A stretch of DNA of 64,000 nucleotides from Dehalococcoidia bacterium. GTDB lineage: Bacteria > Chloroflexota > Dehalococcoidia > GIF9 > AB-539-J10. Positions 12,889 to 26,069 of the stretch are shown piece by piece (position 1 is the first letter of the stretch; each line of letters begins with the position of its first letter). Where the stretch lies: contig JAXGQG010000002.1 in assembly GCA_040766535.1 (NCBI GenBank), positions 64,521-128,520 on the forward strand. The letters are read 5' to 3'. The notes under the pieces are model-generated. The model searched no databases, was not told the origin of the DNA, and worked only from the letters and a program-made list of their open reading frames with translations. The position numbers and the translations under genes are program-made.

Positions 12889-13968
12889 ATGGGAGACCAG
12901 TATCCGAAGTTCAAAGCAGCCGCAGTACAGACATCGCCTGTCTTCCTCAACCGGGAGGCGACGACCGAGAAGGCATGCCAGCTGATACACGAGGCCAGCC
13001 GCAACGGAGCCAAGCTCGTAGCGTTTCCGGAGACCTTCATCCCCGGGTATCCCTACTGGATCTGGCTCGACTCGCCGCTCAAGTACAGTGACTGGTTCAC
13101 ACGCCTCTTCAACGAGGCTGTCGAGATTCCCAGTCCCACCACGGACGCACTCTGCCAGGCTGCCAGGGCCGCCGACATCTATGTAGTCATGGGCGTGAAC
13201 GAGAAGATCGCCACCAACATGGGCACGATGTGGAACACCAACGTGGTCATCGACCGCCACGGCACTATTCTCGGAACGCATCGCAAGCTGGTGCCAACCT
13301 TCGCTGAGAAGATGATCTGGTCCCGCGGAGACGGCTCAGGCATGAAAGTCTGGAAGACCGACATCGGTAACCTTGGCACCCTCGCCTGCGGAGAGAACAG
13401 CAACACCCTGGCCCGCTACGCACTGCTGGCGCAGGGGGAGCAGGTGCATGTGGCCAACTACCCGTCGCTGGGCCTCGGCTCCAAGCTGGGGCAGAATACG
13501 TGGATACATCTCAGGGCAGGCGCCCACGCCTGCGAGGGCAAGCTGTTCACCGTGGTCTCAACCAGCACGGTGGGTCAGGACATCGTCGACGTGCTGGGCG
13601 ACACCGAGGAGCACCGCAAGTTCCTGACCGACGCCAACGCATACAGCGCCATCTACGGACCGAACGGCGAGGTGCTGGCGAGCATCGAGGGTGAAGAAGG
13701 CATCATCTACGCGGACATCGATATTGAGCTGGAGATCTCCCGCAAGCAGTGGCACGACATCATCGGGCACTACACTCGGATGGACGTCCTCTCGCTGAAC
13801 CTGAACACGGACGCCGACGAGCCGATACGGTTCCTCACTGCCCGACCCTCGGCGCCCAGTGGCGGAGCAACCGACGCCACCGCACGGCTAGCCGACAGAA
13901 CCAGGCGGAGCTGCAGGAACTGCGCAAGGCCATCGCCGAACTCGCGGCGGATGGGAGGGAGGAAGTAG
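12889..13968 (+). CDS. Nitrilase / carbon-nitrogen hydrolase family protein
   Basis: AGGAGGAG lies upstream of ATG 12889. The E-K-C triad context is present: AFPETFIPGYPYW, HRKLVPT, LACGEN. The C-terminal tail is R-rich and looks out of frame. A helical tail (NQAELQELRKAIAELAADGREE) is readable in the ORF 13749..14018 frame, so the true end may be 14018. Confidence 0.8.
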   Translation: MGDQYPKFKAAAVQTSPVFLNREATTEKACQLIHEASRNGAKLVAFPETFIPGYPYWIWLDSPLKYSDWFTRLFNEAVEIPSPTTDALCQAARAADIYVVMGVNEKIATNMGTMWNTNVVIDRHGTILGTHRKLVPTFAEKMIWSRGDGSGMKVWKTDIGNLGTLACGENSNTLARYALLAQGEQVHVANYPSLGLGSKLGQNTWIHLRAGAHACEGKLFTVVSTSTVGQDIVDVLGDTEEHRKFLTDANAYSAIYGPNGEVLASIEGEEGIIYADIDIELEISRKQWHDIIGHYTRMDVLSLNLNTDADEPIRFLTARPSAPSGGATDATARLADRTRRSCRNCARPSPNSRRMGGRK

Positions 13969-14599: not shown

Positions 14600-15118
14600 C
14601 TACCCGGCTTTTCTCCACACCCCAAGCTGTCTCAGCGCAACGCTCAGCAGAAGGATGAGACTGACCGAGTAGAAGATTGCGAAGCCTGTGTGGAGCGGAA
14701 CGTTCAGGCGCGCGAACGTTGCCATCGTGGTTTCGTCCGCAATCCCCATCATCACCTGGTCCTCCACCGTTCCGAAGTCGAACCCGAAGAACACCGCGCC
14801 AACCCAGAACGTGGACAGCCCGGCCACAACCGCAATCACGCGGTCTCTCTTGAGGAGGAAGGCAAACACAGTCCAGATAACGCCGGCTGCCAGGGCAAGA
14901 TACAGGAAGGAATCATAGAGGATGTGCGGGCTGCTGGCCGCGCGAAAGACTGAGAACGTCTGGCGCAGCAAATCGGCGTTGCCGGATTCTATGAACCACG
15001 TCTGGAAGCGGCCAAACATGATGGCGTGCGACGTCAGGAATCCGGCCATGAGTCCCGTGAGCGCGGTGGCGCCACACCACGATATCCAGAACAGCCTTCC
15101 AGGCACCATGCTATTCAT
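14600..15118 (-). CDS. Integral membrane protein, four predicted TM helices (possibly DUF1772-like), function unknown
   Basis: 172-aa ORF with hydrophobic segments and coding-like composition. The family assignment is only a guess. Confidence 0.55.
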   Translation of the reverse strand: MNSMVPGRLFWISWCGATALTGLMAGFLTSHAIMFGRFQTWFIESGNADLLRQTFSVFRAASSPHILYDSFLYLALAAGVIWTVFAFLLKRDRVIAVVAGLSTFWVGAVFFGFDFGTVEDQVMMGIADETTMATFARLNVPLHTGFAIFYSVSLILLLSVALRQLGVWRKAG

Positions 15119-15312
15119 CTCTGTCCCACCTCACCACCCATGATAGCGGCCGCGCCAGGTGCTGTCGATGCCCTTCCACGAGGAAACAGAAGTAGATCCC
15201 ATCCTGGAACGGAAGCACCGTATCAAGCTGAGAAGAAGCCAAGCTCCACTGTCACTGAGTAAGCACCGGATATCTAACCTGCCAGTCACATACATCAGCT
15301 CGATTGATTCGC

Positions 15313-15750
15313 TCATCGACGACGCGTCGGCTGATCAGTCTTCTTTGCGCCGGTCTGCCGCAGGAACGCATTGAGGTCGATGTAGTCTGAATTGCGAGCG
15401 ATCTTTCCATCCCGCAACTGAAGAACCGTGGCTCCTCGCACCGAGAAGCGCTTTCCTGTGGGCTCAAGCCCGGGAACGCTGCTATGCACAAATGCACCGG
15501 TCATAGTCCACTCGGTTGCCGCCCAGTCTCCAACGCCGAAAGTGGACATGGCCTCCATCTTGAAGTCTGCGAGGTCCACGAAGACGGATTGAACCAGCGT
15601 TCTCACCCGCTCCCTGCCCTGCTCGAGCCGGTTCAGAGCGACATCTTCATACACGCAGTCGTCAGTGAATAGAGACACGAGCGCTTCGGAGTCATGCGCA
15701 TTCCACGCTGCAAGGTACTCCTTCACGAGACTGGTTGGATCAGTAGTCAT
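15313..15750 (-). CDS. SnoaL-like / NTF2-fold (ketosteroid-isomerase-like) protein
   Basis: GGAGGGGGAG lies upstream of ATG 15750. The N-terminus LVKEYLAAWNAHDSEALVSLFTDDCVYED is typical of SnoaL-like polyketide-cyclase-fold proteins. Confidence 0.7.
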   Translation of the reverse strand: MTTDPTSLVKEYLAAWNAHDSEALVSLFTDDCVYEDVALNRLEQGRERVRTLVQSVFVDLADFKMEAMSTFGVGDWAATEWTMTGAFVHSSVPGLEPTGKRFSVRGATVLQLRDGKIARNSDYIDLNAFLRQTGAKKTDQPTRRR

Positions 15751-15968
15751 CTCCCCCTCCAGCGACAGCCGCCAGTCAAAGATGTCCTGTCGTCTCCCAT
15801 ACCTGCCAGGCACCCTCCACGGCTCCCGCCTCCGTGCTGGACAGGGCGAGTCCGCGGTGCAGGCGTCACTGCGGTGAGTATACTCCGGCGCAACGAACTG
15901 CGTGCTGCCGGTGCCCGCTGAGTGCAGAGAAAGGCCGGGCGCCTCAGCGCCACGCCTGTAATAGCGAA

Positions 15969-15990
15969 GGGGGGCCCCGCCGCGCCCCCC
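15969..15990 (-). terminator. GC hairpin, probable original dnaN terminator now separated from dnaN by the inserted element
   Basis: GGGGGGC-loop-GCCCCCC hairpin about 25 nt beyond the relic dnaN stop codon inside the left repeat copy. On the minus strand it is followed by TTCGCTATT. Confidence 0.4.
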
Positions 15991-16009
15991 AGTTTAGTGT
16001 TAGTCTCGA

Positions 16010-16040
16010 AATCCAACTACCACTGCACGAACATCGGCAT
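16010..16040. repeat. Left 31-bp direct repeat (att-like), duplicate of the dnaN 3' end
   Basis: AATCCAACTACCACTGCACGAACATCGGCAT is identical to 23017-23047. On the minus strand it encodes MPMFVQW-stop, the last codons of dnaN. Confidence 0.85.
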
Positions 16041-16271
16041 GTCTGCCGTTCCATGCGTACGTGACCTGTGCGGCAAGTTCAATGCTGTGAGAGCTTCATG
16101 AAAGAAGTGCAGGCTGCAGCGCCGAGAGGCAGAGTCAAGTAGACGACGAGAACAAGGAGAGGCTCGGAACAGGGTTGTCAATGGCTGGGGAGTCACCGAT
16201 GTCAGGACAGGCGAGTGCGAGGTCGACTGAAGTCGAGACCGATGCTCGGAAGGTCAAGGCTAGCTCAATCA

Positions 16272-18134
16272 TTAAGACAGCAACGAAAGCACCGATGGAA
16301 GCGGGGATGCGCATGGGTCGCACTCATGGACCTCCAGTGATTTTCGATGCGGAATTCCGTGACAGCCACAGTAACAATGCTGGGTTTCCCCCAGGTCGTC
16401 AGAGGACAAGTGCAGCGGGAAGCTCACCTGACTGCCATCGGACGGTCGGTGGCGCTTGGCATGCTTGAATGTGGTCTGCAAACCGACGGTCAGGTGCTCT
16501 GGCCGCTTGCCATCGAAGGTCTTCCACTGTGAGTATCTGTAACCTTGGGATACTTCCGGTCAGGGTACAATTCGGGCACGCAAACCAGCTCCTGCCTCCT
16601 GGACCATGGGTCGGGTCGGTTGCTCAGTGTGACGAAGACACCAATCGCCGCCTTCTCGTTCCAAGACACCTTTGAGGTCCGTATCTGCGACGCGTTGACG
16701 GCGCCGCTCTTGACCTGTACGACCACGAGCTTCGCCTGCCCGGAGTTGTCGTCGAAAGAACCGAAACACCCCGTCGATGCCGCTGTCTGCGCCCTTGCGC
16801 TTGTCGTGGGCGAGATGGGCGTCAACCATATCCACTGCCCACCACTCGAATTGGTGTCGATTCTGTTCGGCGAGGGCCTGGGCACTCGATAGGTCTTTGG
16901 GCTGGCCTATCACTTCGTATGGGGCCAACTGGCTCTGGAACGTGTCCTGAAGGCGACGTCTCATCAGCGCAATGGCCAGGTGGGTGATGTCGATGCCAAT
17001 CCACCGGCGCTTGAGACGCTCTGCCACAGCGACGGTCGTGCCGCAGCCGCAGAACGGGTCCAACACGACGTCGCCTTCATTACTGCTGGCTGTGATGATG
17101 CGCTCCAAGAAGGCCTTCTGGCTTCTGCGTGGGATAACCCAGGCGCTCGTGGTCCCTGCGATGATGGGAGGAACGTCCGTCACAGGTCCTGTAATGGCAC
17201 TCTCCTGGCATCTCGTCCAGATAGCGCTTGTACTCTGGCATTCCATCGAAGGTGTGACGCAGACGCCCCTCCAGCGCGAATCGCCGCATGTTCTCCCTTG
17301 AGAAGGCCCAGAATCGGCCTTCATGCCGGGCGCACCCCCTTGTACTCCCAATCAGGAGGCGAGGGCGCGTGTGCTCGCTGTCCAAGTCAGCTTCCCACCG
17401 TTCCTTGCGCCCAGCACGTCTCTTCACGCGCCATTCGTACTCAGTGTCTCCACCAAGGCGTGCTGCGGTAAGGTCGCCTCTCCGGAATCGGCGGTCGGTC
17501 CCCTCCTCGACAAGGCGGTAGTCCCTGCTCATGTACGATTCCTCGTACGCTGTATAGACGTCGTTCCACGTCCAGGCCTTCCCCCTGGTGTAGAAGAAGA
17601 TGACATCGTGGATGTGCCCGTGAATCCGTCGACCCTGCTTTGCGTCGCTGTGAGCGCTCGACCTCTTCCAGACGATCTCGCTCCGGTAGTTGTTCGCCCC
17701 AAACACGGCGTCCATCACAAACTTCAGGTAGTGACTTGCGGTGGGGTCACGGTGAAGATAGATACTCCCAGTCGGCTTCAGCACGCGGTGGAGCTCCCAC
17801 CAGACGCTGCGCTACCATCACCAGGTACGCCATCATGTCGTTTTTGGCCCAAGAACGTTCTGAACGCCAGAGCAAATCGGCGAGCTTTCGGGGACCGTTC
17901 GCGACCACGTGCTGATAGGCGGACTCTGAGTCGTAGCCCCAGTGCCAGGTATCTTCGAATGCCGTGATTTGTGCGGCGGAGTCCTCGCCACCCTTCTCCC
18001 GGAACAAGACGTTGTAGTTCGTTTGAGTTGAACGGAGGGTCAAGGTAGATGAGGTCGATGCTCTCGTCTGCGATGTGCTGTCGCAATATGTCGAGGTTGT
18101 CTCCGAAGTAGAGCTTGTTCTTCCAGTCCTGCAT
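16272..18134 (-). pseudogene. Beta-class N6-adenine/N4-cytosine DNA methyltransferase fused to a C-terminal restriction-endonuclease-like (Mrr-type) domain; at least 5 frameshifts
   Basis: The protein is spread over ORFs 17778..18269, 17747..18196, 17080..17784, 16560..17351, 16490..16885 and 16272..16481. Motif IV is DLIYLDPPFNSN near the N-terminus and motif I is VLDPFCGCGTTVAVAE later, which is the beta-class order. The C-terminal block is VVVQVKSGAVNASQIR...AAIGVFVTL. The left end is uncertain. Confidence 0.8.
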
Positions 18135-19699
18135 CGACACCTCCAGACAAGCGGGGAGCTTGCACTGGTTCCACATGCTTGGAGAGTACCCCTCAATAGT
18201 CAGGTGGGTCCCAACTGGGGGCTGACATGGGTTGAACGCGGATGGTAGAGTACGCGGAGTCATGGGCAAACGACGGCAGCCTGCCAGGGTGTACGGAAAA
18301 GCACGCTACTGGCCCGAGGGAGTACAGCCGTACTTGGTGGCTGCCAAGTGCGTCCATGTGGCCATCGAGCACTCGGAAGACCCTGAACGGGCGATTCCAG
18401 CGAATCGTGGATGCCTGGGGCAGACCGGGCTGCCAGGCATTCCTGAGAGAAGATTCGTGTGCCGACCGGCAGAATCATCGGCTGGTTCAAGGCAGCGAAG
18501 CAGGGAGTTCAGTACGAGCCGAAGAGGATTTCACGGCGGGACTGCGGAAGCGATACTCCCAGAGCTTGGACGTGTTGTACCTTCTGGCCTTGATTGACGA
18601 TTTCATTCGAGTAGGCTTCAACCGGCGTCATGAAGGTGAAGGTGGTTCGTGGCAACGCACCGTATCTCGAAACGGCTGTGCTTCCAGGCCACGGCGGGGG
18701 AATACCTGGGAGAGGATTCGGAATTCGGCGACGGCAGGCACCTGCAAATAGGTGACGAGTGTTCGACAGGTCGGCACTAATAGACGGCGTGACAGACCAA
18801 CGCCTGCACCGCAAGTACACAAAGGCATTCAAGCACTTCGGCATGCGGCTGACCCACGATAGCAGGATTCGACACCGCATGGTACTGGTATCAGTGCCGT
18901 GTCGTGTACTCCGGCCGGAAGAGTTCTGCATCAAGCATCAACTGAAGACAGGAATAGAGGTTCTGCCGTCCAACATCGTCAAGCTTAGTCCTCCTGCGGA
19001 CATCGCGATGGGTATCCCAGGAAAGGGCTTGGTCCACAGGCCGGCGACAAAATCAGCAACCGTGAGCTTGTCAAAGGGCTGGCATGGCTTTCTTGTACAA
19101 GAAATGTATAGTCGCTGGGCAGAGGATGACTGACAGACTGACCGCGGAAAGTGCGGCGAGCTGCAAGGTCAGCTTCAGCATTGAAGTGCGGGCAGCATCT
19201 GCGAAAACGGCAGGACAGCAAGCCTGAGCTGTTCAACAGGCTCGTCAGCGGGGCCCAGGGCCGGGGCACGTGTACAGCAGACGCGCCCCAACAGCGCCAG
19301 GTAGTACAGCGGCGCGGACAGAAGGAAGAGAGGCGGGTAGTGACCTTCGGCCTGCCGCCTGTTCCGTCTGCCACAGGCCCCGCTCCCAGTCAGGCAAAGG
19401 CACGACCACGCAGGGCCGGAAAGGAGCGGTCGTAATGGACCGGCTCCCACCCGTGTCCAGGCACGGCTCGACGCCGGGAGCGGTAGTCCCGCACGGGTGA
19501 CCGAGACCCCGGCCGGGATTGACACCTCAAACAGGCGCGACCGCCGACTGGTCAACGTGCTCCTGAGTCGGAGACCATCCCATGCGCCTCTGTCTTCAGC
19601 ATATAGGCGCATATCTCACCACTACAACGGTATGGATTTCGGGCCAAGGTGGCTGCGGTGCCAGGTGCGCAGGGCGTCGCGATGTACGGGTCCGTCGCT

Positions 19700-20290
19700 A
19701 TGAGAACGCGGGCGTCTACCGAGCACAGTCTCAGGGCAACAAGCGCGGCACCATAAAGCGTTTCTCGGCAGCGTCTGCGCGGCGTCTGTTGCTGAACATC
19801 CGGAACACCCATGGCCGCGCTGGAAACCGGTCGTTCTGACATGCCCGGGCGTCTGGTTTCCAACTGACGGTCGCAAGGTCAAGCGCGACATCGACGCCTT
19901 CCTCAAGGTCCTCCGTCGACAGGGTTTCCGTGGCGTGTGGTGTCTGGAGTTCCAGGAGCGCGGAGCACCATGCTCACGTGTACGTCTACGGCCGGGTGCC
20001 AATACAGGAGTTAGCCGGGCGTGGTGGCGCATCGTGGGGTCCGGCGATCAGACCACCGTCATGCAGGGCTCCGTGTACGTCCTGTGCGTCATGCAGGCGC
20101 CTGGCTGGGTACCTGAAGAAGTCGTACATCGCAAAGGCAACACAGAAGGACGTTACCGGGGCCTATCAATCGGTCGGGCGGTTCTGGGGCGTGTTCGGAG
20201 GGGCGCGTCCAAATGGGAGGTCATGGGCGACGGAGACACCTTCATGAGCGATATGGTCCGGATGCTGCGCAGGTACGAGTACTCAACACG
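19700..20290 (+). pseudogene. Rolling-circle-type (HUH) replication initiator remnant
   Basis: Fragments in three frames: RFSAASARRLLLNIRN, VVLTCPGVWFPTDGRKVKRDIDAFLKVLRRQGFRGVWCLEFQERGAPHAHVYVYG (an HUH-like PHAHV) and AGYLKKSYIAKATQKDV..YQSVGRFWGVFG. These resemble plasmid/phage Rep proteins. Boundaries are approximate. Confidence 0.5.
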
Positions 20291-21538
20291 ACGGGCGACG
20301 GGATGGCGCAGACCTAAGGTGCGTGACGATGGACGTCATTCGAGAGTGTCATGCAGGACCGCAGAGGGGTTACGGCGAGTGCTCGCACACTCCGAGGAGC
20401 AATGGAAGCGGGAGCAAAGGAGGCTCAATGTCTGACTACTGGTGCGAAAAGCTATCATGCAGCAAGTACCCGTGCGCGGCTGTAAGAGCCGCAATCTCGA
20501 CTCCGGAAACCCCGGAGTTCTGCGTCTGTGCGGCGCGGAGATAGAGCGCGACAAACGGGGAGGCTGGAGCCATATGTGAGGCGCTTCATCAACGGTCTGG
20601 GTTTCCGGCGGATGCATGCGGAGTGCCTCAACGATGTGCTGCGGCCGACGACCACCAACACCGAAGCAATCGAGGAACGCGGGTACCCTCCGGGAACGGA
20701 AGGGCGGACCACCTGAGCGGCTGCCAGGCTGCGTACCGGACGGCTACGAAGAGGGCGCGGCTGGCTTGTCAGGACGGCAGGCGCACCGACCGCAACGGCG
20801 ACTGCTACCATCACGGCGCCTGTGGGGCCTTCCTGCGGCGGGCCGGGCCAGTCAAGGGCACGCGTAGCGGAGCCGGGGCAGAGTCTTGACGGGGCCGGTC
20901 CCGCCGAACAAGCTCGGTTTGGTGAGATGCCGAACGGTGAGAGCATCTCTTGCAAGCGGTAGCCCAGCGCTCTTGACATCATATCGGCATGGCTGTAGCA
21001 TAGGCGCATGTGCATCGAACTGCCAGAAGCACTCGAATGCCTCCGGTGCAGGCACAAGTGGATACCTCGGAAGGCCACGCCTCCGAAGACGTGCCGCGCT
21101 GTAACAGCCCGTACTGGAACAAGCCAAAGTGGAAGGGGGTCAAGAAGAGTGGTGACCATGTGACCGAACGTGAGTTGCGGCGAGTGCTGCGCAGGGTATC
21201 CGAACAGAGCGTAGTCAGGGTTGCGGCCGTCGGGAGACGTTTGGGTGGTTAGGAACGCCGTCGGAGTGGATTGTGAACGGACTCAGGTTGTGCTGTGGAC
21301 GTGTGCCATCAGAGGCTGGCTGGAAGTGCAGGCCAGCGCCATACCTGGTGGCTGGTCTGCAAGGGAAAAGTGTGGAACTACCACACGGCATGGGGTGGAA
21401 CATGCAGGTTCTTTACAGACTAACGCAGGCAGGTTGAATGCCATTGAGAAGACGCACCACTGGGTCGTGGCTACGTGTATCATCGCCGGATTTGGACTGG
21501 CGTTCACGGTCTTAAATATCTTCGCAGGGTGATTACAG

Positions 21539-23010
21539 ATGGGCGAAAGAGCGGCAATCTACTGTCGGGTATCCACTGAAGGCCAGGGGCAAGACGGCAC
21601 TAGCCTCGACACGCAGATGGACGCCTGCCTCAAGTACTGCAGACACGGCGCTGTGAGGTGGTGGCACGGTACACAGCAGACCTTCTCGGCTTGGCGCTGG
21701 AGCGCCCACGGCTGACCGAACTGCCGCGACCTGGTGCAGTCTGAGGCGATTGAGTGCGTGGTCGTCTACAGCCTGGACCGTTTCTCCCGTGACCCGGTGC
21801 ATGGTGTGATCTGATGCAGGAACTTGAAGCAGCGTCGCGCTGGAGGCGGCGACCAGGAACCAGTCGACAACTCCGAGGTGGGCAAGCTCGTGTTCTACAT
21901 CAAGGGCTACGCGGCCAAGTTGGATGCAGGCGCAGGCGTGACGCCACCGGACGCGGCAAGAAGGCGATGCTGAAGGCGGGCAAGCTGCCACAGGGCACCG
22001 GCATCGGCTTGTACGGGTACTCCTGGGTGCGCGAGTACAAGAAGCCAATCCCCATCGAGTCGGAAGCGCGTGTGGTGCAGCGCATCTTCGAAATGGTGGC
22101 GAAGGGTCAGAGCTGCTACAGCATCGCTCAAACACTGAACAAGGAAGGCATTCCCACACGAGCCGGGAAGCGCTGGGAAGCGGTCACAGTGAGCCGTCTT
22201 GTACGGAATCCGGCCTACTGCGGACTAACCTACTTCGGCCGCACGAAGGGCGGCAACGGCGAAGGGCCCAGTACCGGAAGAGGCATGGGTGCTGTTGCCC
22301 GACACTACTGAGCCAATCGTAGAACGGGAACTCTTCGACCAGGCACAGGCGGCGCTGGCGCGCTCAAGGAGCTTCGACCGGGCAGAGCACTACACGACTA
22401 TCCACTGACCGGCTTCGCATACTGCGGCTACTGTGGCAGCCCACTCGTGGGAAGCTGTCTCGGTGATATCAGTACTACCACTGCAGGGGCACCTACAACA
22501 CGGGAGCAGGTACGGGGCTGCAAGGCGCGTTACCTTTGCTGGCAATGACGAAGAGGTGGTATGGGAAGAGGTGAAGCGGTCACAAGCCAAGCCTGAGTTG
22601 CTGCTGGCCGAAGTCAGGCACAAGTAGAGGCTGGACAGGAAGAGGTATCGACCGGCGACCTGGACCGGGAGATTGCGGCACTGGAAGCGGAAGCTGAAAA
22701 TACCCAACCCGGGCGCCATCTGCTGAGCGCCTTCTGAAACTTGGATTCACTCCAGACGTGGTGCTGGACGAAATGAATGAGACGAAACGGGAGAAGGAAG
22801 CGGATTCCGCACGCCTGGACCAACTGCTAAAGACGAAAGAGAGTCTGGCGCGGGTCAGTGACATGGAGATTCATCTGCGGGAACTGTGCAGCCGGATAGT
22901 GACCGACCTGGACAACTGCTCCGCCCAGGACAAGAAAGACGCCTTCAGTGCCTGGACATCCGGGTCACAGCTACTCAGGAAGGCGTCGTCATCAAGGGCT
23001 ACGTTCTGAG
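21539..23010 (+). pseudogene. Large serine recombinase (integrase), many frameshifts and in-frame stops
   Basis: N-terminus MGERAAIYCRVSTEGQGQDGTSLDTQ with the catalytic-Ser context. Later blocks: VVVYSLDRFSRDPVHGVI, a recombinase-domain block (RVVQRIFEMVAKGQSCYSIAQTLNKEGIPTRAGKRWEAVTVSRLVRNPAYCG), a zinc-ribbon-like CGYCGSPLVG..YYHCRG and a coiled-coil tail. Fragments lie in all three frames. The last frame reads through the right repeat. Confidence 0.8.
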
Positions 23011-23016
23011 TCCTGG

Positions 23017-23047
23017 AATCCAACTACCACTGCACGAACATCGGCAT
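23017..23047. repeat. Right 31-bp direct repeat (att-like), overlapping the functional dnaN stop
   Basis: Identical to 16010-16040. Contains the dnaN stop (TAG, complement of 23024-23026) and its last 7 codons. Confidence 0.85.
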
Positions 23048-24157
23048 TATCACGTGAACGTAGTTGTCCGTGCCGAGGGGGCGTACGACACCCGGGCTGG
23101 ACGGGGTGGTTACCTCTAGTGCAACCTGTGACTGCTTGATGACGCCGAGCACGTCGAGCAGGTATTTCACATTGAAGGCGATCTTGGCCTCATTGCCGTC
23201 CACCAGCGCATCGAGGTCGCCGGTGTTGCCGCCGACTTCCTCGGCCTGGGCTGTCACCGTGATCTTCCCGGCCTTCATGTCGCCGCCGGGAGTGACAAGC
23301 AGCCTGACGATATTGCTGGCATCCCGCGCAAACACGGACGCCATCTTCGAGACGCGCGTGAACTCGCTCACCTCGGCGACGGCCCTGGTGTCATATTTCT
23401 GCGGGATGACCTGCGAGTAGTTCGGGAACGTGCCCTGAATGAGCTGTGTCACGATCTCCGCGCTGTTCAGTCGGAAGAGCGCCTGGCTCCGCTGTTCGTT
23501 CACCGCCACGTAGACCGGTTCCTCCTGCTCACCCAGCAGGCGATGGATCTCCGTGAGCGTCCGGGCCGGCACGATGATGGTGGTCTTGCCCTCAACCGCC
23601 CGAGACAGCGGCATGCGGTAGACGGCCAGACGGAAACCATCGGCAGCGGCAAGCGTCAAACGCTCACCCTCGAATTCGAGGTTGATGCCGGTGAGCACCG
23701 GGCGAGACTCGTCAGTGGCCGCCGCCATTGCGACGCGCACGATGCCCTCGCGCAACCCATCCGCGCCGATCTCGGCGGTCATGGACTCGCCCACCTCGGG
23801 CACGGGCGGAAAATCGTCGGCGTCGATGCCATTCATGTGAGCCTGGAAGCGGCCGCAGGTGAACTGCACGGTGCGCCCGCCGGCAGGCATCTCGATGCTG
23901 ACCAGTTCGTTGGGCAGTGAATTCACGAATTCACCCAACAGCCGCGCCGGCACGGTGATGCTGCCCTCTTCCTCAACCTTCGCGCCCACCCAGCAGGTAG
24001 TGGCCATCTCGAGGTTGGTGGCCACCAGCTTGAGGCGCGATTCCTCGGCGACGATGAGGATGTTCTGGGCCACCGGCAACGTCGACCTCACCGCCACGGA
24101 CCTGCCCACCATGCCCAGACCTCGGCTCAGGTTCTCCTGAAGACACGACACTCTCAT
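23024..24157 (-). CDS. dnaN: DNA polymerase III beta subunit (sliding clamp)
   Basis: 377-aa ORF, DnaN-like along its whole length (LSRGLGMVGRSVAVRSTLPVAQNILI..., ...GTDNYVHVIMPMFVQW). Confidence 0.95.
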   Translation of the reverse strand: MRVSCLQENLSRGLGMVGRSVAVRSTLPVAQNILIVAEESRLKLVATNLEMATTCWVGAKVEEEGSITVPARLLGEFVNSLPNELVSIEMPAGGRTVQFTCGRFQAHMNGIDADDFPPVPEVGESMTAEIGADGLREGIVRVAMAAATDESRPVLTGINLEFEGERLTLAAADGFRLAVYRMPLSRAVEGKTTIIVPARTLTEIHRLLGEQEEPVYVAVNEQRSQALFRLNSAEIVTQLIQGTFPNYSQVIPQKYDTRAVAEVSEFTRVSKMASVFARDASNIVRLLVTPGGDMKAGKITVTAQAEEVGGNTGDLDALVDGNEAKIAFNVKYLLDVLGVIKQSQVALEVTTPSSPGVVRPLGTDNYVHVIMPMFVQW

Positions 24158-24191
24158 ACGTCTACCTCCTCAAATCGGGGACCTAATGATA

Positions 24192-24812
24192 CTATCGGCC
24201 CTTCGGACCGTCAATGAATCGCTGGATAACCGGACGCGCCGCCGCCGCCGCCCTGCCGCGGTGACTGAGGCGGTTCTTCACTTCCGGCGGCAACTGGGCC
24301 ATCGTGAGTCCAAGATCGGGCAACAGGAATGCCGGATCGTACCCGAAGCCACTCTCGCCGCGAGGTTCCGTCACGATGCTGCCGGGACACACTCCCGTGC
24401 AAAAGGCCACTTCTCCTGAAGGAGTGGCGATGGCGATGACACACACGAAGCGCGCGCCGCGCCGTTCGGGAGGTACTCCCCGCAACTTCTGCAGCAGATA
24501 CGCCACACGCTCGGCGTCCGTCGCGTGCTCTCCCGCGTAGCGCGCCGAGCGAATGCCCGGCTCGCCGCCGAGCGCTTCGACCTCGAGGCCGGAGTCATCC
24601 GCCAGCGTCAACAACCCGGAACGGGCCGCACACTCCACGGCCTTGATGCGGGCGTTCTCTTCGAACGTTGTGCCCGTCTCCGGGATATCGCCGTCCAGGC
24701 CGACATCGCTCAGAGACAGTAGTTCACAATCCAGCCCGTGCAACAGGGCCCGATACTCCGCAACCTTCCCTTTGTTCGCGCTCGCGATCAGCAGTCTGAG
24801 TCTATTTGCCAT
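24192..24812 (-). CDS. rdgB: dITP/XTP pyrophosphatase (RdgB/HAM1 family)
   Basis: LLIASANKGKVAEYRALL, TFEENARIKA, ADDSGLEVEALGGEPGIRSARYAG, GFGYDP, SHRGRA. The start overlaps the upstream fbp end by 11 nt. Confidence 0.9.
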   Translation of the reverse strand: MANRLRLLIASANKGKVAEYRALLHGLDCELLSLSDVGLDGDIPETGTTFEENARIKAVECAARSGLLTLADDSGLEVEALGGEPGIRSARYAGEHATDAERVAYLLQKLRGVPPERRGARFVCVIAIATPSGEVAFCTGVCPGSIVTEPRGESGFGYDPAFLLPDLGLTMAQLPPEVKNRLSHRGRAAAAARPVIQRFIDGPKGR

Positions 24813-25988: not shown

Positions 25989-26017
25989 AGTCTAGCAACG
26001 GCCAAACTGGGGGTCAA
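25989..26017 (-). promoter_or_regulatory. Putative promoter of the fbp-rdgB-dnaN transcription unit
   Basis: On the minus strand: TTGACC (complement of 26012-26017), 17-nt spacer, TAGACT (complement of 25989-25994). It is about 75 nt upstream of the fbp start and immediately adjacent to the 18-bp repeats. Confidence 0.4.
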
Positions 26018-26018
26018 T

Positions 26019-26069
26019 AGGCGGTCGTACGAATGTAGGCGGTCGTACGAATGTAGGCGGTCGTACGAA
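26019..26069. repeat. 18-bp tandem repeat (2.8 copies), each copy containing the 8-bp palindrome TCGTACGA
   Basis: AGGCGGTCGTACGAATGT occurs twice, followed by AGGCGGTCGTACGAA. Palindromes lie at 26025-26032, 26043-26050 and 26061-26068. The array sits between the stop of the FAD gene (26078) and the putative fbp -35. Confidence 0.85.

Follow-up and report, generated by a model that had tools for sequence, protein, structure and literature searches.

A repeat-bounded insert at the 3′ end of dnaN

The window, a 64,000-nucleotide stretch of DNA from a Dehalococcoidia bacterium, contains at 16010-23047 an insert bounded by a direct repeat at the 3′ end of dnaN, the gene of the DNA polymerase III beta clamp, which an earlier note on the sequence had taken for a decaying integrative element. 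The source is a metagenome-assembled genome (MAG) of 1.53 Mb in 60 contigs, with a completeness of 72%. The exact 31-mer AATCCAACTACCACTGCACGAACATCGGCAT is found at 16010-16040 and 23017-23047, with 0 such repeats expected by chance and none in shuffles of the window, and it occurs only these two times in the whole MAG. The perfect 31-bp repeat that the earlier note had reported is confirmed.

The dnaN gene (23024-24157, minus strand) is intact and encodes 377 aa with all three Pfam beta-clamp domains. Its protein ends in MPMFVQW*, and these seven codons and the stop lie inside the right copy of the repeat (attR, 23017-23047), which was also claimed earlier. Since this C-terminus is conserved in all relatives examined, it represents the native, working end of the gene. 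The left copy (attL, 16010-16040) is an orphan made of the last seven dnaN codons, the stop and 7 nt more, and it runs on into sequence matching the empty site described below. On the dnaN strand it is followed by TTGGATTTCGAGACT and then by a GC-rich hairpin at 15969-15990 (minus strand), which folds as GGGGGGC..GCCCCCC. Empty sites carry a comparable hairpin 25-40 nt past the dnaN stop, directly after the gene, in agreement with the proposal that the hairpin is the original dnaN terminator, now parted from dnaN by the insert.

Next to attL, a conserved motif, GTCTGCCGTTCCATGCGTACGTG (16041-16065, plus strand), forms the left end of the element and corresponds to the putative P′ arm of attP. 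It is shared with the left ends of the related elements L043 (Logan SRR27370447), L045 (JGI 3300034693) and L046 (one of L046-48, GCA_003563175.1 and others) and with the circular L060 (JGI 3300009168), and remnants of it are present in assemblies G002 and G012. No tRNA, tmRNA or Rfam match was found within 15000-24500.

Gene content of the insert

Genes of the insert were read with a frameshift-aware protein-to-DNA aligner against intact relatives, and all were found to be pseudogenes. At the right edge, on the plus strand, lies a large serine recombinase (21550-23136) with 80.5% aa identity to the intact 536-aa protein P0001, broken by 17-18 frameshifts and with 0 in-frame stops. Its frame continues through attR into the antisense strand of dnaN. 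Its fragments match PF00239 (Resolvase) and PF07508 (Recombinase) at 21539-22311, and the recombinase also matches phrog_95, annotated as integrase; intact relatives at 71-80% identity present all three domains Resolvase, Recombinase and Zn_ribbon_recom. The family protein thus has the make-up of a large serine integrase (resolvase catalytic domain, Recombinase domain and zinc beta-ribbon in about 500 aa), the window copy being a pseudogene.

Upstream, also on the plus strand, a HUH rolling-circle replication initiator (Rep) remnant is located at 19674-20436. It shows the motifs VVLTCP, HAHVYVY and YLKKSYIAK, with HAHVY as motif 2 (HUH) and YLKKSYIAK as motif 3 (Tyr), it is 45-47% identical to intact proteins of 329-371 aa, and it carries 6-8 frameshifts. 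Read through the frameshifts, it matches PF23343 (REP_ORF2-G2P) with 35.4 bits against a cut-off of 27.8, and the rolling-circle initiation family phrog_3419 at 5.9e-10. A Pfam search of the raw, unstitched frames of 18250-21560 gave no match, so the Rep is seen only after stitching. More than 300 homologues of this Rep type were found. The Rep_trans-like initiator of G005 and L045 was tried as the counterpart of the window's Rep and rejected, as there is no similarity.

Two conserved genes of unknown function flank the Rep on the same strand. The "p304" pseudogene (18234-19046) aligns by its N-terminus to a 140-aa open reading frame (ORF) of L043 and by its C-terminus to the p304 of G005, with at least 4 frameshifts; the Cys-rich "p170" pseudogene (20424-20849) is 67% identical to a 170-aa protein of G005, with 5 frameshifts. 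The cargo, on the minus strand at 16419-18144, is an N6/N4 DNA methyltransferase (MTase) fused to an Mrr-type nuclease domain, with 70% aa identity to an intact 549-aa protein of L043 and 10-12 frameshifts. N6_N4_Mtase (PF01555) is matched in two fragments within 16560-17784, and the motifs DPPFNS (DPPF) and DPFCGCGTT are visible in ORFs, the FCGCGTT of the latter being presumably the S-adenosylmethionine-binding motif. Intact homologues also carry Mrr_cat and NA-iREase1; Mrr_cat is seen only in such intact homologues (L043 and L045), to which the window MTase aligns over its full length.

Profile searches therefore confirmed the recombinase, the Rep and the MTase, in line with the gene content first suggested. 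In total, at least 42 frameshifts were counted in about 6 kb, around one per 140 nt, within the 100-200 nt spacing given in the earlier note. The search for a near-identical intact copy gave 77% for the best recombinase match and, for DNA from 202 genomes of the order, 73% at best, and for this reason the indels could not be placed against a true parent. In genome-wide frameshift scans, by longest open frame or by a codon-usage Viterbi model, the element was not separable from ordinary operons of this GC-rich genome.

Empty site and state of the locus in relatives

Look-up of the exact DnaN protein in public assemblies gave two contigs, L043 and L044 (Logan SRR24938616), in both of which the protein is 100% identical to that of the window. 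On the dnaN side, L044 matches the window at 98.4%, and it then passes directly into the left flank (16040-15665, 94.7%). It reads dnaN, TAG, TTGGATT and hairpin, with the SnoaL-like gene of the window 203 nt downstream. The site is empty here, which gives a positive answer to the check suggested earlier, since this strain with identical DnaN has dnaN directly before the hairpin. The locus thus has the two marks of an integrative element, att repeats on both sides of the insert and a relative whose site is empty.

The reverse explanation, that the 7 kb are ancestral syntenic DNA and the repeat a product of chance or duplication, has practically no probability left. It is refuted by the empty site in the strain with identical DnaN; the 7 kb are also missing from four other congeners, the repeat occurs only twice with no larger duplication around it, and nothing was found in favour of ancestry. 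Both observations that the earlier note had named as capable of overturning its claim, ancestral 7 kb and a larger segmental duplication, were checked and neither was made. In addition, the other 201 genomes of the order lack the 7 kb, except for 66-78% matches to the MTase and recombinase genes.

The second contig, L043, has flanks 93-98% identical to those of the window and holds at the same place a different insert of 3.9 kb with the same termini. It contains an intact 549-aa MTase-Mrr gene, with 77% DNA identity to that of the window, and a truncated p304 gene adjoining the terminator-like hairpin that directly follows dnaN; no recombinase was found in this 3.9-kb insert. Beside the intact MTase-Mrr gene, a 343-aa ORF (L043:13751-14782, minus strand) with a nucleotidyl-cyclase-like motif (..GDGLLIV..) was observed, which may be defence cargo.

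As for other relatives, the site is empty in the congeners G004, G007 and G010, where the hairpin directly follows dnaN, and G005 carries an intact related element at dnaN. Degraded remnants at this same site were found in the independent assemblies G001, G002, G003 and G012, as recombinase C-terminal stubs or isolated left-end motifs, and in L043. In G001 (L024, G001:C52:1-3000), a 1.6-kb stretch downstream of dnaN contains the translated left-end motif (..ACLPFHAY..) in three places, which suggests that remnants have piled up in tandem, as in the repeat arrays at ssrA in Dehalococcoides. Orphan dnaN C-terminal fragments of 26-34 codons were also observed about 18 kb from dnaN (99752-100876) in G032 (L026, G032:C28:81570-81665) and on another contig in G031 (L027, G031:C21). 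No recombinase of the dnaN clade was detected near these fragments in G032 or G031, which may belong to larger or different islands at the same site.

Decay versus assembly error

Whether the frameshifts represent decay was examined by comparison of recombinase sequences. With two outgroups, the unique substitutions at codon positions 1, 2 and 3 were 34:30:35 in the window and 14:8:35 in the intact sister L045 (Fisher p=0.0025). A five-way nucleotide alignment gave 30:28:23 for the window, against 10:5:23 for L045, 6:13:28 for L060, 21:10:31 for L046 and 19:19:22 for G005. The excess in the window is confined to positions 1 and 2, which are raised to the level of the third, while the third-position count (23) is that of intact relatives (22-31). 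This fits loss of selection, since random error would add substitutions at all three positions. Transitions and transversions in the window were 45:36 in the nucleotide alignment; a noise-like 33:48 was discarded as an artefact of codon-forced alignment. Indels unique to the window recombinase were 18 (13 deletions of 1-4 nt and 5 insertions of 1-5 nt), whereas three of the four intact relatives have none and L060 has one 8-nt insertion. In addition, the P arm of attR carries a 5-nt insertion in the window, suggesting that the att site of this copy is itself damaged.

Several observations weigh against decay. When compared with L043, a short-read contig 96-98% identical in this region, the wider flanks of the insert contain five frameshifts (12395, 13892, 13941, 32524 and 32631), all single-base and in short homopolymers, so the assembly is not error-free. 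There are 0 in-frame stops among 60-99 apparently neutral recombinase substitutions, where 2.7-4.4 are expected (P 0.07-0.01). The orphan repeat has stayed perfect at a neutral divergence of about 6%, for which the chance is estimated at about 0.1. Finally, the codon-position support comes from the recombinase, the MTase relatives being too distant for the same test.

An alternative is that the element is real and correctly placed but intact, the frameshifts being consensus errors of an indel-prone assembly at low or mixed coverage, for instance with the insert present in part of the population. The genome is indeed a MAG, its flanking housekeeping genes show the homopolymer frameshifts mentioned above, and the recombinase has no stop codon for all its 17 frameshifts. 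This alternative is nevertheless considered unlikely. The indel density in the insert is about 30 times that of the flanks, and its indels of 1, 2, 4 and 5 nt are not tied to homopolymers as those of the flanks are. Random errors should have raised the third-position count. Excess substitutions outnumber indel events by about 2.4:1 (an estimate), or 81:18 when all unique substitutions are counted, and long-read error profiles show the reverse. Clear remnants at the same site come, moreover, from independent assemblies.

Real decay of the genes is thus the probable cause of the frameshifts, and the substitution pattern is in favour of the word "decaying" used in the earlier note. Its statement that the adjacent 9 kb are free of frameshifts holds for 23.0-32.3 kb, where none was found, but not for the wider flanks with their five. 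Overall, the stretch 16041-23047 (7,007 bases, the unique insert plus one repeat copy) is likely the fossil of a small integrative, plasmid-like element that was inserted at the end of dnaN and then decayed.

As a separate observation, in L058 (CAWCLJ010000004.1, a 2.0-Mb contig) dnaN and the adjacent recombinase are both split into several frames. In contrast to the window, host and element genes are there uniformly frameshifted, possibly through assembly-wide indel error.

The element family and its dnaN target

Intact elements with the same gene order stand beside dnaN in L045, L046-48 and G005. MTase or other cargo comes first, then p304, Rep, a small ORF (p170 or p152) and lastly the recombinase, whose ORF extends in antisense over the end of dnaN, by a few codons in G005 and up to about 145 nt in L046. 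Most intact relatives have an unrelated Rep_trans-like initiator in place of the PF23343 Rep.

This gene content also bears on the possibility that a very small ssDNA virus or satellite, now a decayed prophage, was inserted here instead of a plasmid-like element. Reps of the PF23343 type are also present in inoviruses, microviruses and pleolipoviruses, the phrog_3419 and phrog_95 matches of Rep and recombinase agree with a viral origin, and the conserved p304, p170 and p152, having no known function, could be structural. On the other hand, no gene recognisable as capsid, morphogenesis or Zot-like was found in the window copy, L045, L046, L060 or G005, and the exchange of the Rep for an unrelated initiator with the rest of the module kept fits a plasmid backbone. 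A viral origin is accordingly regarded as very improbable.

Use of the dnaN site by the plasmid-like family was surveyed at two levels. Among named GTDB genomes, 10 of the 11 recombinase homologues converge on dnaN; all records are from Dehalococcoidia or other Chloroflexota except one 1.9-kb contig labelled Bathyarchaeota. In 401 genomes sampled across the class, a homologue was found in 15, with 13 of the 15 converging on dnaN, in 13 genera and with 37-72% identity. Complete single-contig genomes are included, one of which (G254) has only a truncated recombinase beside dnaN. A deep clade of serine recombinases in Dehalococcoidia normally uses the 3′ end of dnaN, and the description of this end as an unusual integration target could not be maintained. 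The tail of P0112, representative of a Dehalococcoides mccartyi cluster of 52 members, reads ..LTIARTWA and, as far as a protein tail can indicate, would fit the antisense of a dnaN-like end.

Literature searches aimed at dnaN as a target of integration gave nothing relevant. The circular elements of 7-8 kb at the end of dnaN apparently form a class-wide family so far undescribed.

A different target was observed on the ENA contig of P0127/P0094 (ERZ1426829, 186,973 bp), which has the window's Rep type, the same module order and a recombinase of 58% identity. This recombinase overlaps the 3′ end of a metallo-beta-lactamase-fold gene and not dnaN, so target specificity has shifted within the clade. 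The complete genome G254 also encodes large serine recombinases that share no more than 25-28% identity with the dnaN clade; three of the G254 enzymes (L080, L084 and L087) adjoin tRNA-Asn, tRNA-Val and tRNA-Asp genes. Serine recombinases of Dehalococcoidia generally seem to take the tRNA-end niche usual for tyrosine integrases.

Circular form, att sites and proposed crossover

The circular excised form is represented in the family by L060, the window copy being integrated. L060 (contig Ga0105104_10006694) has 7,697 bp with an exact terminal overlap of 123 bp, and its Rep ORF is whole only across the junction, from which a circular form of about 7,574 bp follows. The recombinases of L060 and L045 share 87% identity. 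Past ..KGYV, the recombinase gene of L060 reads ..CTCACCATTGAACAAACATGGGCAT|GTCTGCCATTTCATGCGTACGT (the junction can also be written ..TCACCATTGAACAAACATGGGCAT|GTCTGCCATTTCATGCGTACGT). Read in antisense, this stretch encodes MPMFVQW*, and the conserved left-end motif comes next; the junction is the predicted attP.

The exact identity between attL and attR is 31 bp in the window, 25 bp in L043, 14 bp in L046 and 8 bp in L045. In L046, the VQW* codons that now end dnaN differ synonymously from those of the orphan copy, which means that the element supplies them. The identity common to all four elements is ACAAACAT (ACGAACAT in the window), and the crossover is placed on this basis in the Met-Phe-Val codons of dnaN. 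The putative crossover interval ACGAACAT lies at 23034-23041, and also at 16027-16034; it corresponds to the sole attL/attR identity of L045 (8 bp) and is contained in the 14 bp of L046. The inverted heptamers TACGTAC and GTACGTA of L060, 52 nt apart, have their midpoint on the AA of this interval. This centring is suggestive only, because TACGTA is itself palindromic.

The earlier note had regarded long identity segments as atypical for serine integrases. It was right in that such length is not required, as relatives share only 25, 14 and 8 bp; the length of the repeat stems from attP, which brings a substitute for the final dnaN codons. The long identity is thus a gene-end mimic that selection on DnaN preserves, and not a demand of the enzyme.

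From these data the following course of events is proposed. The active form would be a circle of about 7-8 kb with a rolling-circle Rep by which it may replicate, two small conserved proteins, the large serine recombinase and cargo, here the MTase-Mrr fusion. Its attP, at the 3′ end of this recombinase gene, would hold a sequence close to the final dnaN codons with their stop. The recombinase would pair attP with the matching end of the chromosomal dnaN and presumably catalyse strand exchange within the approximately 8 bp of the Met-Phe-Val codons, so that the circle is inserted. The end of the DnaN protein would remain unchanged, partly supplied by the element, with the old gene end and terminator orphaned on the far side. 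After insertion, function was probably lost, frameshifts accumulated in every gene, and with the 5-nt insertion in the P arm of attR the element would no longer be capable of its own excision.

Comparison with known systems

The closest described system is that of the ssrA genomic islands of Dehalococcoides with the serine recombinase DsiB (McMurdie et al. 2011, BMC Genomics 12:287; PMC3146451), a paper which itself likens these islands to SCCmec/CcrAB and also mentions elements of the pSAM2 type. Both systems belong to the same bacterial class, have a large serine recombinase (about 540 aa in the islands) at the edge, and integrate at the 3′ end of a single-copy essential gene, the islands leaving a 20-bp direct repeat of the gene end at the far boundary (PMC3146451). 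In both, the recombinase ORF crosses the att site into the complementary target strand and tandem remnants pile up (PMC3146451). However, the islands target tmRNA instead of the protein-coding dnaN, and they are larger and stated to be without replication genes (PMC3146451), whereas the dnaN family has a rolling-circle Rep and a circular form of about 7.6 kb. Neither the ssrA site with its 20-bp ssrA repeat nor the six-gene island module (DsiB, DsiA as a second small recombinase, RecF-like, ParB, Mom and an RNA-polymerase-domain protein; PMC3146451) is found here, where the target is dnaN and the module consists of p304, Rep, p170/p152 and recombinase. The comparison with DsiB was by description, the enzymes compared in sequence being the large serine recombinases of G254.

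In SCCmec/CcrAB of Staphylococcus, a conserved protein-coding gene, rlmH/orfX, receives a circular element in its last codons through the action of large serine recombinases; its ORF is kept, and short direct repeats remain. The likeness, also drawn by description, lies in this manner of entry. SCC needs two recombinases (or CcrC) and is without a replication initiator of the PF23343 type, and host phylum and target gene are also different.

Elements of the pSAM2 type in actinomycetes are small, integrate site-specifically at a gene 3′ end and encode a rolling-circle Rep, with a tyrosine integrase, a tRNA target and transfer genes. Small size, gene-end integration and a rolling-circle Rep for the circular form are shared with the dnaN elements, while the integrase type, the tRNA target and the transfer genes are not, and the match of the window Rep to Pfam RepSA is negligible (E 0.64).

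For the large serine integrases of phages such as phiC31, Bxb1 and A118, attP and attB usually share few bases and the target gene is often disrupted. The dnaN clade has the same domain set (Resolvase, Recombinase and Zn_ribbon_recom) and the attP beside the integrase gene. In contrast, its attP carries the gene-end mimic, owing to which the essential dnaN survives insertion. After the ssrA islands and SCCmec, this would be the third case of serine recombinases acting like tyrosine integrases, with the element bringing a replacement 3′ end of the target gene.

Implications

The window copy is an ordinary dead remnant, and the interest lies in the family that it reveals: circles of 7-8 kb, spread across Dehalococcoidia and present in complete genomes, that enter the end of an essential replication gene without damage. 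The comparison yields matched attP, attB, attL and attR, a putative crossover interval of about 8 bp and intact recombinases, which together would allow a site-specific integration system to be tested. No genetic tools are known for the organohalide-respiring Dehalococcoides and relatives.

A more far-reaching interpretation is possible but doubtful. The elements may be the first natural small replicating and integrating plasmids recognised in Dehalococcoidia, a class-wide family specialised on the last codons of dnaN, in which the swap of the recombinase C-terminal tail between the circular and the integrated form, together with antisense transcription from dnaN, would act as a directionality switch.

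Flanking regions

The genes hit by the flank frameshifts are a TctA-flavoprotein fusion (12395), the C-terminus of a nitrilase (13892-13958) and the N-terminus of a UxaA-type dehydratase (32524 and 32631). These may be either residual assembly errors or real lesions, and the annotations of those genes need care. Upstream of fbp, at about 25989-26069 (indel at about 26033), the window has 36 bases more of the TTCGTACGACCGCCTACA tandem repeat than L043, so the copy number of this repeat is polymorphic.

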